Shown piece by piece: positions 10,104-64,000 of a stretch of 64,000 bases of DNA (position 1 is its first letter; the number at the start of each line of letters is the position of its first letter). Location of the stretch: assembly GCA_023515725.1 (NCBI GenBank), contig JALDTO010000156.1, positions 62,001 to 126,000 on the forward strand, read 5' to 3'. The notes under the pieces are model-generated. The model saw only the letters and a program-made list of their open reading frames with translations. It was not told the origin of the DNA and did no database searches. Source of the DNA: Amoeboaphelidium protococcarum X5. Its lineage: Eukaryota > Fungi > Aphelidiomycota. The position numbers and the translations under genes are program-made.

Positions 10104-11699
10104 ATGTTATCTGCAAATAGACCGCATGAAAGTTATGCTGCTGCCGTCCACGATGCCCCTCCTCAGCCTATCCCTGGTACCAGTAAGCTGGCAGGCTAGA
10201 AGGATATGAGCTCATCCTCTTCATCCTCCTCTGATGGAAGTGCCACTCCATAGTAATTTCAGAAGGATGGCTTGAATCAAGACCTTGATATGATGATCGA
10301 GAACAACACTCAGATTATTGAGATGAACACTGTTGAAGTGAGCTATCAGATTGGTTTGCCGTAACAGGATGAGAATCTGTCTCTGTGGTAGGATTTCTAT
10401 GGTGAGACGATTAGCTATGCCAATTTCTTAATCTCCCTCACCACTGAATTGTATGAGATGGTTTCCGAATGGTGGTCTGGTTTGCTAGTGGACAATGTAC
10501 CTGGTATGCGTGATGTTTTGGAATAGTCTACCAAGGATTTGAGTCTGTGGGAAGGTGCATGGAGATGGTCTTTTATTAATCTGTTTGGGCCTTTGCGTGT
10601 TATGTACTCTCTGCTGGCTCAATATGCTCGCAATAATCCTACAAGAGGTCCTATTCTTATTTGGACATTGGCTCTGGCTTCTACTCCAATTTTGATTGCT
10701 TCAGTTGCCGCATTGTCTGTTATTGGCTGGACTTTGGCTGTGTCTTCTGTCATTTTAGGCCTGTCTGTTGGTGGATGGCTGTTGTTTTCATCCACTGCTC
10801 TGTTCTGGTCTTTTATTGGAGCGGCTGGTTTGATGTCCTCGTACTGGATTACGATGTATGTTATGAAGTAGTCTAAGCGTCTGGTCGGTAATGTTCTCGG
10901 TTTTGCTTCTGAAGCTGAAGATAAGCTGTCTAGCCGTGTGTCTCAGGTTCGTGATCAGGTTAAAGGAAAGCTGTAAGAAGGTTATGAAGATGTGAAGGAG
11001 AGTTCTGCCCAGTTGGCTTCCAAGGTTAGAAATCAGTCTTCAGAATTAGCTAGTGAGTTTGCATCCAAAGTTTAGGAGTCCTTCCCACAAGCAACAGAAA
11101 CTGTCCAGTCTGCTGCGTCTGATGTGAAAGACTATGCTCAAGATGTGGCTGGCAAAGTTTAGCGCGATGGATTAGTAGCTGGTGCATAGAAAGTTGCAGG
11201 TGACGCTGGATAGCAAGCTTAGGATCTATCCAAGTAAGCCCGCGATGCTGCTTCTGAGAAGGTGAATGAGCTAGGTGAAAAGGCTCGCGAGACTTTCCCA
11301 AAGACTGCAGATGCTTTGCAAACAGTCTCTGATGATGCAAAAGACATGAAGGATTCTGCAGTAGAGACTGTCAGTGATTTGGCGGGTAAAGCAGCTGATC
11401 TTGCTTCTGAGAAAAAGGATTATGCTTTGGACAAGGCTGAAGATTTTGTCAGTGTCGGTGCTCAGAAGGTTTCAGATGCTTCGTCCAACTTGAACAGTAA
11501 GTCTGCCCAATTCAAGGATAGTGCAATTGATCTGCTGGAGAAGAGCAAGTCTGATAGTTTGAGCAGCGGTGGTGAGGATTTGGATGAGAATGATTATCAT
11601 GATGTCAAGCCGTTACAGGAAGAGAGTTTGGGCGAAGAGGCTCAGCACAAGGTTGAGGAGCTGCACAGTCACCATGCAAAAGTCATTCGTCTAGCTTGA
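10104..11699 (+). CDS. Putative lipid-droplet protein: promethin/LDAF1-like hydrophobic hairpin plus LEA/apolipoprotein-like repeats
   Basis: 531-aa ORF joining track ORFs 10539 and 11262; ~70-aa uninterrupted hydrophobic segment, then A/D/K/S/Q-rich amphipathic repeats (ESFPQATETVQ / ETFPKTADALQ). Confidence 0.6.
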
Positions 11700-31976: not shown

Positions 31977-33755
31977 TCACGTTCGTTCAGGAGCAATGAA
32001 CACTTATACGTACTCAACACCTTTTCCTTCTCGGCTACTTATCGATGACTACCGGGAAGGAGATTTAAATGTTGCGGTACTGGATGAGTTCAATTTAATT
32101 TTGAACGTGACTATGTCCTTGTAAGCAGTCCTTGCACAGTCCTCTCTAATATCATTGAGCAGTCCCCACTCCTCAAGCAGGCTTGTCTAATGATAAAGCG
32201 TGATTTGCTTTCTATCGGAGTTCAGCTTTTTATACTCCAGTCTGAACCTTCGCCGACAATTTTGACCGCAGTAGTAGATATTGTTTACATCATCATACTC
32301 TATGGGCGTGTCAATAGCTTTAATATTCCGTACTGATTACCTTAAATGAGGCAGAATGTTAGCGTTCTCTGCAAATTCAAGCTCATTCTGGCCGTCGACA
32401 GAGCTTATGATGGCTCTCAATTTCTCTGAAGTAACCAGTGAAGATAGTTCATATACCTGTTTCATAAAGCGAGTTTCATAAATTTTTCCCAAATAGTTGC
32501 GGACATCAACTACGGTATTCTCTCGTGCTGTTGAACGGTCTTGTTACTGCTCCGCGGTATATCGTTGCAATTACGATGAGCCTGGGAAAAAACCTTCAAA
32601 TTTCACAGGTTCTAAATTCAGTTTAACTGTAGCAACGTGTTATTCAAACCAGCCAACTCCACTAGATCCGACTTTACCAAAATTCATAGTTCTTGATATC
32701 TCTGGCCGTATGCATCCGCGTTACTTATGCTGGTCAGAATGCCGGAGCCAGTCATCCCAGTAAGTTTATGGCCAGCTATCGCGCAACTCTGCTGTCCACA
32801 ATTACTTTTTCAACATCCACCCAAGACCAGGGAAGAAATCTGAGCGATAGAATGAATATGGATCTTCAATCAAATTCGGTTTCCCATTGTCATTCCAGGC
32901 TGATATGCAGAACAATGAGTCATCAGCTTCCAAGACGGGCAAGAATGCCTGAAAGTAGTCATAAAAATCCGGCGCTATTTCCATATCATCTTCGACAACT
33001 ATTGCCTATTGAAACTGCATAACGTCGAATACTTGCGACAGAGCCCACTTGTAATGCCTGGATATCTTATAAAATGCAACATAATCTTCGTGTCCTTTCT
33101 TTGTAACAGGAGTAGATTGATCTGGTTACTACAAATCTTATGACATGTGATAAATCAAGGGAGAGAATTATAAAAGCTAACCTTTATGTGCAGAACGCGA
33201 TCCGAGTATTGTTTAATGACCTTAGAAGTTTCCTCGTGACCGCAATCCTGACTAACAATGATGGCAACATTCTCTCGCGGTTTATACTTGAGCAGACTGT
33301 CTAGAGCTCGTGAGACAGATGGCCTATTACACGCAATGACCAGAACTGCAATATGAGCCGGCAAAGGCTATACCTCAGGTATCTGCAAATTAACAAGTTT
33401 CAACTAATCATCAGCCACCTTGTCTGGGTGCAATAAATCTTCTTGAGGCTTTATAGGCGGTATAAAACCTGCTGCCGATGGCGCTCGAAGTGCAGTATCA
33501 ACATCTTGGTCCGACATTAGTCTCTACACTATTAAGTTACTTTGATAATGTATATAGAAATATAAAAATATTGGGATGGGTATAGATAAATACCTTTTGT
33601 GTTCCATCGACTTCTGTGAGATAGTTCTTTTCATTAAGAGTGTCAGATTTATCATTGACAGGACTTGACCAAGTTAAAGTAAACATTCCATATAGGATGA
33701 GTGCAATACTTATAGCCATAACTAGCCTTACAACCTTCTTATTATTTATACTCAT
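31977..33755 (-). CDS. MGAT1: GT13 alpha-1,3-mannosyl-glycoprotein GlcNAc transferase I-like, paralog A (2 introns)
   Basis: VLVIACNRP, VSQDCGH, YKISRHYKWAL, VEDDMEIAPDF, CISAWNDNG, RSDFFPGLGWM, WDDWLR. Confidence 0.9.
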
Positions 33756-34123
33756 AATGTTATCAGTGAAATATTAGTTTTTCAAACTATGATCTATTGA
33801 CAATAAAGTACAGAGAATCAAAAGAGTTGAAACAACGAAGTGAAAGTGAAACGTTGTAATAGTTTGCCGAATTCAAAAAATAGTCCTGACTATTCATGGT
33901 TGTACTAATCATTTATTTCTCTGAACAACTATACCTTACTTTTGTAGTGTAAATCAATGCATAAATTATAATTATTACGCAAAAGGGGTCCAATCAGAAG
34001 GCTTAATTTTCTGTGATACGTTGGTGTCCAATCTTGACTACCAAGTTGATTATAGGCTTTTTTCTCTTTGTTAACGAATATTTTTTATCAATACAACCTT
34101 CAAACTAAATAAATAAATAATTC

Positions 34124-35793
34124 ATGGCATCTGTAATTAAATTGAAGCCTTCAAGAGTCTTAATAGTATGTATAGGAGTATTTCTTCTTATTCTATTCGG
34201 ATATAACCAGGATTGGGGCAATGGATCACTCAACGCTAAGCAAAAGGTAAAAATGTGAATTGTTTCGATCATTGCAACCATCATCATTTCGTTATTACAT
34301 GTAGAAAATGGCTCCGTATCTATCAGACAAGTTGGCTAATATTGACAGTAAGCTATTCATGATATTAACATGGCATTCATATCATTTTTCGCTTTGTAGT
34401 AGATCTCCTAGAGCAATCATTATCTGAGACTGGCGTCAAATCCACAGTAATTGATCGCCTTCAATTTATCAAGGTGAAACAATCAGGCCAATCAGAGCCA
34501 CGAAGTCGCGATGGAAATTCAGCCACTGTAAAATCAAGCGAATTGGCGTCTCTTGATAATAGGAATAGTGGTAATACAGCTCTGCTTATTATTGCTTGTA
34601 ACAGGCCTGAGATTGAACGTGCACTGAATGCAGTTTACAAGTACAAGCCAAAGGATAGAATCCCGGTTATTGTTAGTCAAGACTGCAATCATGAGCCTAC
34701 TTCTGAAGTTATCGATAAGTTTTCCGATCGTTTAATCCATTTAAAATATCCTGTAAGAGAACCACCTCAGGTCCGCCCAGGAGATGAACGCTGGCTTGGT
34801 TATTACAAATTGGCGCGTCATTATAAATGGGCTTTGGAGTAGACATTCAATGTTCTCATGTACGACAATGTTATAATCTTGGAAGACGATATCGAAGTTG
34901 CACCTGGATTTTTCAAGTATTTCGAGGCATTCACCCCTCTCCTTCGCGCGGATCCCTCGTTGATGTGCATCAGTGGATGGAATGACAATGGCAAGGCGGA
35001 ACTTGTGGGGGATGCTAATCAATTCCATCGATCAGATTTCTTTAGCGGTCTTGGATGGATGTTGACGCGTAAGTTTTGGGATGAAATTCATCCTAAATGG
35101 CCGCTTGTATTCTGGGATGACTGGCTGCGTTAATCTTTCATTCGCAATGGTCGATCATGCATTCGACCTGAGATTACTCTTAGCAGAAACTTTGGTGACA
35201 ATGGTGTAAGTAAGGGCCAATTTCATGAGTAGCACATTGCCACCATTAAAATGAATGAGGAAGAGTTGAACTTTGAAAGCAGAGACGGTGTGGACATTAC
35301 GCGATTTGAAAAGAGTCGATATGATGCAGTATTTAAATTACAACTGACCAAGCTGTCTCGCGTTGCCACATCTGCTGAAATTAAAGCGATGCTCAATTCT
35401 GATGATCCTGAGAATCATCCTCTCTATCTGAACAATCCTAATGTAGTGACTGCATCTGATGCGGATGTCGATGATCAGTTTAATTTAAATCGGCCCAACT
35501 TTTGCGGGCGTTAATGTCTGCGGCGTTATGTAATTTACTACGATTGGCTCGATCAGGATCAAGAATTTCATGGTTATCGCAATTTCGTACCTCTGGCCAA
35601 GGAGTGGAATCTGATGGATGACATAAGAGAAGGGACAGCTCGGGTGGCTTATTAACGGACCGTCTGCTTTAAATCGCATTTTAAGAATAAGCTTCCACTA
35701 AAAGTGTACATGAGCGGTAAACAGAGGATAGCCAAGAATTAGTTTGAGCAGTACATTGCTATTTGTATATCGCCTAAGCCTAAAGATGTTTGA
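34124..35793 (+). CDS. MGAT1: GT13 GlcNAc transferase I-like, paralog B (2 introns)
   Basis: LIIACNRP, VSQDCNH, YYKLARHYKWAL, LEDDIEVAPGF, CISGWNDNG, RSDFFSGLGWM, WDDWLR, CIRPEI. Confidence 0.9.
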
Positions 35794-53945: not shown

Positions 53946-54638
53946 ATGTTTAAAATTCGTAGACTGTCCAACATGTCGGAGTTAGTAACTTTAAATGATC
54001 CAGTCAGAATATTTAACAGCTGGTTTGACACGCATAAGAAGGGGTTTCCTAAGGAGTCAAAATATGCCTACAATGCCGCTCAATTGGCAACGTGCGGCGC
54101 CGATATGATGCCATCAGTGAGAACGGTACTCATCAATTGGACCAAGGAGACTGAAGATCGCGGTCTAGTACTTACAACGTTTTCATATTATTGCAGCAAC
54201 AAGGGAAAAGATATTGAAGAAAATAGTAACGTGGCTCTTTGTTTCTATTGGGGTGATAGACAAGTTAGAATACAGGGCACGGCTTAGAAGTGCTCAGATC
54301 AAGTAAATGACGATTACTTTTACTCACGCTCCTTGTCCAGTTAAATCAATGCTCATGCCAAAATGCAGTCTCTACCGCTAGAAGATCGCTCATAGTTTGA
54401 GGATAAAGTTTAAAGCTTGGAATAGAAGTTTGCTGGTGGATAGGTTCCACGTCCAGAGTATTGGGGAGGATATGATATCACGGCAACGTCTTTTGACTTT
54501 TGGGAGAAGGCTGGAAGATTGGATGATAGATTTCAGTTCATTTTAACAAAGAATAATGAGTGGTGTAAATAAAGATTATATCCATAAATAGAGATATTGA
54601 TTCATTTCACAATACATTACAATAAAAGTGCATAGTGA
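53946..54638 (+). CDS. PDX3: Pyridoxamine 5'-phosphate oxidase-like (PdxH/Pdx3), divergent
   Basis: DPVRIFNSWF, PSVRTVL, NKGKDIEEN.NVALCFYW, RQVRIQG, YFYSR, PRPEYWGGY, W..QRLYP. First in-frame TGA is 54636-54638, but the conserved end is at 54584. Confidence 0.85.
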
Positions 54639-54639
54639 A

Positions 54640-54655
54640 GGTGTTTAAAAACACC
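54640..54655 (-). promoter_or_regulatory. Histone 3' stem-loop (H3 copy 1)
   Basis: GGTGTT-TTTA-AACACC, 6-bp stem/4-nt loop, ~40 nt after the stop. Confidence 0.85.
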
Positions 54656-54695
54656 ATTTTACATTCAATAAATGAGATGAAAAGACTCAGAGAGT

Positions 54696-55821
<1,126 letters not shown>

Positions 55822-55856
55822 ATACTCTCACTGAGATGTTTCTATTATCGCACAAT

Positions 55857-55872
55857 GGTGTTTTTAAACACC
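55857..55872 (+). promoter_or_regulatory. Histone 3' stem-loop (H4 copy 1)
   Basis: GGTGTTTTTAAACACC, 35 nt after the stop. Confidence 0.85.
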
Positions 55873-55933
55873 TTCAAATGTTCAGCTCTATTAAGTGAGT
55901 TATTTTGAAAATTACATTTACTATTATATTATT

Positions 55934-61364: not shown

Positions 61365-61499
61365 TGTTGCTCATGTATAAGGCAATGTTTAGAAATACTG
61401 AAACTAAAGAAAAGAATGTAAAGCTACAACCGTACAGTACTGTAAGATGAACAAGTAATATATTCAAATAAACTCACTTAATAGAGCTGTACATTTGAA

Positions 61500-61515
61500 G
61501 GTGTTTAAAAACACC
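61500..61515 (-). promoter_or_regulatory. Histone 3' stem-loop (H4 copy 2)
   Basis: Same 16-mer hairpin downstream of H4. Confidence 0.85.
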
Positions 61516-61549
61516 ATTGTGCGATAATGAAAAATCGTAGTGAGAGTTT

Positions 61550-62029
<480 letters not shown>

Positions 62030-62267
62030 TCAAGCCTCACGGAAAACACGACGGTGGCCGCGCTGTTTGAGGCTTCTGAAACGAAAAGTGGAACTGGCAC
62101 GGCTAAAACGCTCGCTTCGTCTGTTTGGAATGAACCACCACGGACGGAAAGTGTCTCAAGCGATAAAAGCCGCCCGTCGCCTCGTCCGTTTCTCTTCTCC
62201 TCTTTGCAGTTTTTGTTATTACAATAATCCTTTTACTTACTCGCACAAATCCTAAAGACATTTCAAG

Positions 62268-62675
<408 letters not shown>

Positions 62676-62715
62676 ACTCTTTGAGTCTTTTTATCTCATT
62701 TATTGAATGTAAAAT

Positions 62716-62731
62716 GGTGTTTTTAAACACC
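62716..62731 (+). promoter_or_regulatory. Histone 3' stem-loop (H3 copy 2)
   Basis: Same 16-mer hairpin. Confidence 0.85.
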
Positions 62732-62853
62732 TTCACTATGCACTATTATTGTAATGTATTGTGAAATGAAATATTATGTGCTCATTTGGACACTGTTCTA
62801 GAGTTATAGAACATGTTGTTAAAGCTGGGCACTAGAGTAAATGTCTTTATCTA

Positions 62854-62907
62854 TGACTCAGTCCGATAGTCAGTTTGTATATACAAACTGACTATCGGAC
62901 TGAGTCA
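62854..62907. repeat. Perfect 54-bp palindrome (no loop)
   Basis: TGACTCAGTCCGATAGTCAGTTTGTAT|ATACAAACTGACTATCGGACTGAGTCA. Confidence 0.98.
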
Positions 62908-63301
62908 GTCTACAAAAAAAATAACATTTACTCAATTTTATTTTTTCAAAAGCTCAATTAAAAATAAAAATAATCGCGGGTTTTTAAAATGTTAAGAATC
63001 TCAAAACCACCCTCCACCAACCAAAATTTTCATTCTTTAAAAATATAAAAAAACAAGTTTATAAAAAAAAAAAAAGAAGTAATAGTTTTGATTTTATACT
63101 ATATAATATTTTGGTTGGTTTGGTTGGTTTAGTTGGTTGTTAAAATATTAAAGTATTAAAGGAGAAAAAAGTTCCTACTACACCTTTCACTTCCGGGGAA
63201 ATGATTTTTAGTAGCCCCCAACCAAAAAAAAAACCTCCAAGTAAACCAACCAAACTTTTAAGGAGTAAAATACTACTACTACACCTTTCATTCACAGTAA
63301 T

Positions 63302-63332
63302 AAAAAAAGCCCCGCAGTAAATTTACTACGGG
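63302..63332 (-). terminator. Hairpin + U7 terminator/3'-end signal downstream of the helicase gene
   Basis: Minus-strand RNA CCCGUAGUA-AAUU-UACUGCGGG-GC-UUUUUUU; the stem is complete only on the minus strand (G-U wobble); ~40 nt after the stop. Confidence 0.6.
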
Positions 63333-63373
63333 TTTGTCATTGTGTTGAGGTTGGTGTGGGTTGTGTTATTGTG

Positions 63374-64000
63374 TCATTGTGTTTACTAAAATTGTATTTC
63401 TATAAGCCTCACTCCATTTGTTGTTCGTGTTATTTTGGTATTAATACCTTTTACTTTGCTCATCTTTCTAAAAAACCAACCACGTTCTTCAACTTTGTAT
63501 TTCAAATTGTAAGTTTTGATATATGACTCGTAAAAATCGTAAAGTTGTGCCTTGGTCATTTTCAATGTCTGGTTTTAATTGTCCATTGAACTAATCAAAT
63601 CTTATCTTTACTTCTCGTCAATTTAATCTCCATACATACAGCTATTCAACATCTCTACAAATTCCGTCTTGAGACTATGAAAAAACTTTGATACACTTGT
63701 GCTTTCAATCTAAACTTCTTCCTTTTCAGTAGTATTAAAACACTGTCTTGGATTAAAACTTGTTGTGTCATAATTGTATAGATAACTAAACACTTTTTAT
63801 TAGTAGTCTTCAGCTTGTATCTTTTCAATCCTTTCACTAAGTTATTCTTTTGTTAAAATTTGGTCAACCTTAAACACATTAAAACGTCTATCGCTTTGTT
63901 CGATTCTAACAGGCAAGTATTCGTTACTAGTAATTACAAAGTTATTCAGATTATTGGTTCTAAATATCTGTTTACCTTTACTTTCAATACTCATACGTGG
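63374..64000 (-). CDS. D5-like/NrS-1-type SF3 primase-helicase, C-terminal part (5' truncated by window)
   Basis: 208 codons without TGA: SIESKGKQIFRTNNLNNFVITSNEYLPVRIEQSDRRFNVF (motif B', sensor-1 TSN, Arg finger DRRF), YLYNYDTTSFNP, winged-helix-like LYDFYESY; 10 in-frame TAA/TAG. Confidence 0.82.

Follow-up and report, generated by a model that had tools for sequence, protein, structure and literature searches.

Terminal palindromes beside the target-site duplication have been described in integrated elements of the stramenopile Halocafeteria seosinensis, where virophage subtypes 1, 2, 5 and 6 and the Polinton-like virus (PLV) subtype 4 carry them, with a length of 52 nt in subtype 5 (bioRxiv 10.64898/2026.07.28.741278). 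As described in the same preprint, these palindrome-ended elements mostly combine non-pPolB replication genes with rve integrases, the Halocafeteria elements have mean repeats of 485-808 bp and a GC content below that of the host, and its authors propose, as a model still untested, that hairpins at the ends prime replication. Fusions of AEP and SF3 are common replication modules of PLVs, and PLVs of chytrids have been described (bioRxiv 10.64898/2026.06.19.733378); such PLVs have long repeats, 4-6 bp duplications together with an rve integrase, a GC content offset from the host and a terminal primase-helicase (bioRxiv 10.64898/2026.06.19.733378; PMC12220804; PMC10120064). The Mavirus-like endogenous virophages of Cafeteria (EMALEs) make 3-5 bp duplications with no target preference, vary in insertion site between strains, carry a primase/helicase at one end and have mid-GC types without pPolB, although the words palindrome and hairpin are absent from the main text of that study (PMC8547959). 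For strict Maverick-Polinton elements a duplication of 5-6 bp is given (PMC8547959). A precedent for the use of a host's reassigned code comes from the endogenous viruses of Streblomastix strix, which read TAA/TAG as Gln as their host does (PMC10120064).

The locus that we describe here lies at the right edge of a 64,000-bp stretch of DNA (the window), and its features are collected in Table 1. On balance we think that it is probably the helicase-bearing end of a multi-copy mobile element tipped by a palindromic repeat of about 504 bp, likely an integrating PLV or virophage of an aphelid-like host. Several Polinton-like or virophage features were found: a terminal repeat of hundreds of bp, a duplication within the 4-6 bp range at a sibling insertion, and an SF3 replication gene near the end. 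By analogy, the anatomy of the aphelid element appears to match closely that of the palindrome-ended Halocafeteria virophages and PLVs, in that both have a terminal palindrome some 50 nt long that adjoins the target duplication, terminal repeats of around 500 bp, low GC and a non-pPolB replication gene near one end. It would work like them; membership hinges on genes for double jelly-roll capsid proteins and an A32-like packaging ATPase. It differs from them in its host, code-6 and fungus-like rather than stramenopile, in having one end without the palindrome, and in that capsid and integrase would lie beyond the window. The AEP-SF3 PLVs differ from it in that no capsid gene lies in the aphelid window and that standard-code screens would split its gene, and the Streblomastix viruses in that their host, in Metamonada, is unrelated. 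A 5-bp duplication fits strict Maverick-Polintons. The end found here starts with TG; we take the ends of strict Maverick-Polintons to start with AG.

Table 1. Features at the element end and in the adjoining host flank (positions are those of the window)
Feature	Position	Strand	Remarks
Host flank, divergent histone H4/H3 pair	61460..62770		stops 83 bp short of the element
Candidate 5-bp target-site duplication ATCTA, host side	62849..62853		empty homologous site in X9 is ATGTA, one mismatch; partner end outside the compared contigs
Perfect terminal palindrome, 54 bp	62854..62907		27-bp arms, no spacer, starts with TG
Terminal repeat, about 504 bp, AT-rich, non-coding	62854..63357		putative terminal inverted repeat; depth about 2x that of the gene
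Second copy of the 10-bp terminal motif TGASTCAGTC	62901..62910	+	47 bp inside; the short, hairpin-less terminus starts here in one sibling copy (X1, X2)
9-pair hairpin, possible transcript-end signal	63311..63332	-	about 40 nt after the helicase stop; weak, 1 found against a shuffle mean of 0.3
3' part of an NrS-1/DUF5906-type SF3 helicase gene	63374..64000	-	208 aa in code 6, running off the window end; covers the region of motif C and the arginine finger, the lid and the C-terminal winged helix

The original prediction of a switch to AT-rich, homopolymer-laden DNA after the histone unit was borne out by both composition and runs. GC content is 0.30 at 62854-64000 against 0.40 at 1-61400 (the lowest host window of equal length has 0.334), A or T runs of at least 7 number five in these 1147 bp against six in the preceding 62853 bp, and the predicted start at 62854 is the exact terminus. 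The palindrome at this terminus had been missed; the next-longest perfect palindrome arms in the window measure 7 bp, and miRNA matches on the palindrome fell far below the cut-off. The motif TGASTCAGTC has three matches in the window against a chance mean of 0.32, and all three lie within the terminus; read on the bottom strand, its outer and its inner copy both finish with CA. In contigs of public runs the sequence inward of 63357/63358 is replaced by two others, and we therefore draw a repeat of about 504 bp; one far-end type carries a 93%-identical repeat, with 17 differences and 2 gaps in 254 bp. By eye, both alternative inward sequences have a minus-strand TGA within about 20 bp, as does the helicase, whose stop lies 17 bp from the terminal repeat, and the genes at both ends probably point outward. 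Among the contigs of six public runs, none holds both element ends. A protelomerase site, of which we take a palindrome of this size to be suggestive, was considered and set aside: what lies outside the palindrome is host DNA rather than a mirror-image repeat, and a duplication of 5 bp speaks for a DDE integrase.

Contigs from six of 11 public runs (all except X3, X4, X7, X10 and X11) were compared with the window. In them four further flanks adjoin this same terminus: one before 62853 (X1, X2), one before 62854 (X2), a different one before 62854 (X5, a freshwater metagenome with its own distinct flank) and one before 62901 (X1, X2). Of the X2 flanks, one ends in CAGGG and another in CCCTG; by eye these are reverse-complementary for exactly 5 bases (chance about 0.6% over six flank pairs), and the two flanks also share an 8-mer beside them. 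They are likely the two sides of a single sibling insertion that has a duplication of 5 bp, with a long end on one side and a short end on the other, and this is the one insertion at which such a duplication was seen. The comparison with an empty allele or homeolog that had been proposed did turn up an empty site, alignment being lost at 62850 both in X9, another sample under the same species label in which two contigs leave the window into other host DNA, and in X2, where the homologous contig (record 1) stops aligning. The edge at 62854 is thus a true end of an integrated mobile element, as had been predicted, with the same terminus in several flanks, an empty site and a sibling 5-bp duplication. 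The X2 contigs hold neither the filled nor the empty form of the window's own allele at 62741-62853, so that its junction is not directly bridged. Relative to six single-homologue contigs (mean depth 84), depth in X2 is 2.8x over the gene and 5.9x over the terminal repeat, from which we count about three elements in that sample, contig depth being no copy number and uneven over the repeat (318-493); three long ends were seen for these about three elements. Contigs of X1 and X2 extend 1107 bp beyond the window end, and run X8, which has a single identical piece of 188 bp, at depth 3, besides poly-A matches, was not used. In X9 depth is 0 over 63175-64000, leaving the gene without cover. Gaps in contig cover prove nothing. 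The empty homologous site and the lack of cover in X9 indicate that the present insertion is recent even though the family has long been adapted to code 6. The description of the element as a long-term resident thus fits the family, given its host-code use, and not the present copy.

The gene next to the repeat occupies a minus-strand frame running from 64000 to 63377 and closed by TGA at 63374-63376, in which all the motifs quoted in the original prediction are found (IESKGK, NFVITSN, IEQSDRRF, YLYNYD, FNP and LYDFY). Its ten internal TAA/TAG and absence of internal TGA are recovered exactly as counted before. By itself the openness of this frame is within chance expectation, as a TGA-free frame of at least 207 codons turned up in any of the six frames in 18.9% of 2000 shuffles. 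We accept the frame as real not because it is open but because it has homologues, a PDB match to NrS-1 and synonymous differences in metagenome run X6. In the latter, all 12 listed differences from the window gene fall at third positions and are synonymous under code 6, against 19% of random changes, and the SF3 helicase C-terminus with its winged helix is under purifying selection in that code. Beyond the window end the letters of X6 carry the frame on through an in-frame TAG, with LKDAIT against LKNAIT in the homologue P0003 (by eye). TAA/TAG make up 10 of the 19 Gln codons, the rate of the host (403 of 672, or 60%, in nine long host ORFs; Fisher p 0.64), and from its sequence the gene appears to be translated by a host-type code in which TAA/TAG are Gln, as the claim that it is translatable in the host's code had it. 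Standard-code virus screens would split such a gene, leaving a code-6 element invisible to them, and families of this kind are probably undercounted. A scan for sigma-70 promoters gave matches at chance level.

Which helicase family the protein belongs to is indicated mainly by its relatives. With phmmer, 87 homologues were found at E<=0.001 among 1.84 billion proteins; 28 long ones were scanned, and DUF5906 was above the cut-off in all 28, PriCT_2 in nine and Prim-Pol in four. The 208-aa protein itself has a partial DUF5906 match (E 5e-4, 21.1 bits against a cut-off of 27.6), only profile positions 78-114 falling within the window, and a weak DNA primase match in PHROGs over residues 2-201 (E 0.004). 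In a PDB sequence search the NrS-1 primase-helicase was its only match (E 4.3e-6), and the family profile matches NrS-1 at 8e-62. In an alignment of 82 sequences N26 is invariant and D37, R38 and R39 nearly so, and a structure model built from these sequences reached a pLDDT of 92, against 39 for a single-sequence model. The best PDB fold for the model is NrS-1 (6k9c/6k9e; 191 residues aligned, rmsd 7.2, a middling Z of 6.9) and the best viral fold a helicase/primase/polymerase of Qinghai Lake virophage (A0A0R5K514, E 4.8e-6), while residues 100-204 form a winged helix that matches others, including the origin-binding domain of P4. With both best folds it shares the SF3 C-terminus, lid and winged helix over nearly all 208 aa; unlike them it has its N-terminal primase part beyond the window, and identity is 16-19%. 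The D5-like SF3 primase-helicase that had been predicted therefore stands as an SF3 primase-helicase of NrS-1/DUF5906 type, by homologue domains, PDB match and fold, but not as a poxvirus D5: no Pox_D5 match was found in the 208-aa protein at E<=1, and weak Pox_D5 or D5_N matches occur in two of the 28 homologues. Judged by sequence, then, the helicase appears nearer to NrS-1/DUF5906 than to poxvirus D5.

This family is found mostly in phages, which speaks against a simple viral reading. Of 31 IMG/VR loci fetched three were annotated, and two of these three are tailed phages; all four tblastn matches in a phage collection are bacteriophages; and the Atlas clusters for the best homologue are mostly Uroviricota, with the helicase family also in Preplasmiviricota and parabasalid clusters. 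Among 27 homologues looked up, two had organism names, one on a 1.1-Mb contig of the chytrid Powellomyces hirtus and one in a Spirochaetia assembly. The homologue P0002 is an identical piece of 50 aa on a 1274-bp JGI contig. Word-index protein searches gave no longer or near-length relatives of the 208-aa protein, no viral-contig context was found for the homologues P0003 and P0004, and a FastTree of 82 rows joined the protein only to a long branch and hence gave no placement. The helicase alone does not classify the element. An 18-kb IMG/VR contig (L023, 1-18075, GC 0.29) encodes a related primase-helicase (PriCT-2/DUF5906), after which comes an inverted region rich in repeats (10400-10940); 11 of its 13 ORFs have no Pfam match, and it is possibly a PLV or virophage.

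How might such an element move and replicate? We propose that a DDE (rve-type) integrase would make a staggered cut of 5 bp, as the TG end and the sibling duplication suggest; rve integrases give target duplications of such size and tyrosine recombinases do not (PMC12220804; PMC8547959). The gene would encode a primase-polymerase/helicase fusion of 700-850 aa like its best homologues and copy the free genome, from an origin that may lie in the terminal repeat and be bound by the winged helix, in line with an end-module idea for replication from the repeat (bioRxiv 10.1101/2023.10.16.562556). Once excised, the palindrome could fold into a 27-bp hairpin and prime synthesis as in the Halocafeteria model, with no protein-primed polymerase required. 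Capsid and packaging genes would lie in the interior beyond the window, and host ribosomes would translate the element's genes, hence the use of TAA/TAG for Gln. Within the window we found no capsid, ATPase, protease, integrase or primase domain and no Walker A/B motif, Walker motifs being expected upstream of the window end. Searches of viral contigs, by protein and by palindrome pattern, and of metagenome contigs, by pattern and by protein, recovered no sequence past 64000.

Without a capsid gene in view one might also think of a self-replicating DNA transposon or a transpoviron-like replicon, with the same ends, integrase and helicase, that moves inside the cell or rides with another virus. 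We regard this as a serious if less probable reading. Repeats, duplication, helicase and polymorphic insertions fit it equally well, and the two kinds of far end, one with its 93%-identical repeat, suggest rearranged copies. Halocafeteria elements that have kept repeats and duplications and lost their structural genes do exist, but the full Halocafeteria subtypes with such ends have capsids (bioRxiv 10.64898/2026.07.28.741278). It also counts against this reading that near-identical pieces of the element occur in metagenomes of separate studies (two compared) while the gene is without cover in X9, a sample that bears the same species label; such a pattern suggests that the element has spread from lineage to lineage.

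The unequal ends of the sibling insertion can be read in two ways. The one short end seen most likely belongs to a copy whose hairpin was lost when the two 10-bp repeats slipped against each other. In X2 the contig beyond the short end begins at 62905 rather than 62901 (differences less than 31 bases from a contig end are unlisted). This hints at another letter at 62904, and so at a short end that has retained the ten outermost bases of the long one, and we therefore favour slippage over a second cutting site. Alternatively, the ends could be natively unequal: the free circle or hairpin would close at one palindromic junction, and the integrase would cut one strand behind the CA of the outer motif and the other strand behind that of the inner motif, so that each insertion has one long and one short end. 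We find this doubtful. The only paired insertion does have one long and one short end, both motif copies do end in CA on the bottom strand, and three long ends are what about three elements would give; yet this is a single paired case, with the partner ends of two insertions outside the compared contigs, and Halocafeteria subtype 5 is described with palindromes flanking its repeats (bioRxiv 10.64898/2026.07.28.741278). Unlikely to the same degree, but worth stating, is the larger picture of an active hairpin-primed aphelid DNA virus with natively unequal ends, cut by its integrase at two motifs round a palindromic junction, locked to TAA/TAG=Gln and present in wild freshwater populations, possibly a virophage that would point to an undescribed giant virus.

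Less probable again, to our mind improbable, is that the window captures one end of a far larger provirus, Mycodnaviridae-, mriyavirus- or otherwise Nucleocytoviricota-like, whose ends would be hairpins and whose integrase would be of Polinton type. Polinton-like integrases are reported on giant-virus contigs of fungi in five isolates (Mycodnaviridae preprint), giant viruses have been linked to Aphelidea by lake co-occurrence only (PMC13691094), hairpin ends are known in poxviruses (as cited in bioRxiv 10.64898/2026.07.28.741278), and folds related to this helicase occur in Hyperionvirus, Satyrvirus and an iridovirus; but the layout here, some three copies at sites that are unrelated and a repeat of 500 bp with a replication gene directly beside it, is that of elements of 15-30 kb (PMC10120064; bioRxiv 10.64898/2026.07.28.741278; bioRxiv 10.1101/2023.10.16.562556). 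An assembly artefact, or a contaminating phage joined to a host contig, is very hard to credit even though most helicase homologues are phage proteins and no compared contig bridges the window's junction: the chimeric join at about 62850 that the original prediction had raised left no sign, and it is improbable, since the break would need to coincide with the very base at which the element ends in other flanks; the host flank agrees with the empty site as far as 62850; and the gene requires TAA/TAG as Gln, at the host rate.

The integrating PLV or virophage that we prefer would be of interest first for its host. The element is real, has moved recently and is adapted to the host's code; its kind is known, but the host group is new for it. 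Literature searches on aphelids combined with Polinton-like elements, endogenous elements or terminal inverted repeats, with subscription papers and bioRxiv supplements outside the search, gave no report of an integrating DNA virus or Polinton-like element in aphelids. Aphelids are also unnamed in the available portions of PMC10120064 and its three supplements, of bioRxiv 10.64898/2026.06.19.733378 and of the Mycodnaviridae preprint, and the portions of the Gezel-14T preprint available to us hold no passage on terminal hairpins. Aphelids are algal parasites next to Fungi, and they crash algal ponds. As a cultured strain has about three copies and a sample of the same species label lacks the gene, they offer a small system for the open hairpin-priming model of PLVs and virophages without pPolB, and the same system may serve to ask how a reassigned code limits the host range of viruses.

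The host is likely an aphelid. Genes in the window are intron-poor and eukaryotic and can be read in code 6; they include those for chorismate synthase, Cut8, UTP20 and an Ank-DIL protein. Host contigs occur in pairs about 90% alike; for Amoeboaphelidium protococcarum both UAR as Gln (PMC5304391) and genome-wide duplications (PMC10608142) have been reported. The divergent H3/H4 pair of the host flank (61460-62770) is duplicated in inverted orientation 5.5 kb away (54601-55912), with 96.7% identity over 1314 bp. H4 (61550-61861) has no TAA/TAG codons, H3 (62268-62675) has three TAG, and both H3 copies (the other at 54696-55103) encode a protein of 135 aa whose tail (ATKARKS) lacks one residue and which occurs unchanged on three NCBI contigs. 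A shared 23-bp element that contains a 6-bp stem and a loop of 4 nt stands at the end of the H3 as well as the H4 genes (62711-62755, 61475-61520, 55852-55897 and 54636-54658), and three of its copies match Rfam Histone3 over the whole model, weakly, at 18 bits against a cut-off of 34. We know of no histone 3' stem-loop in Fungi, and one in their sister group would be notable if true. Farther away, at 31977-35793, two neighbouring genes of the GNT-I glycosyltransferase family lie on opposite strands with a GT61 gene nearby; to our knowledge GNT-I is absent from most fungi. At 1511-2345 there are Cys-rich tandem repeats with periods of 18, 75 and 90, metallothionein-like by eye.
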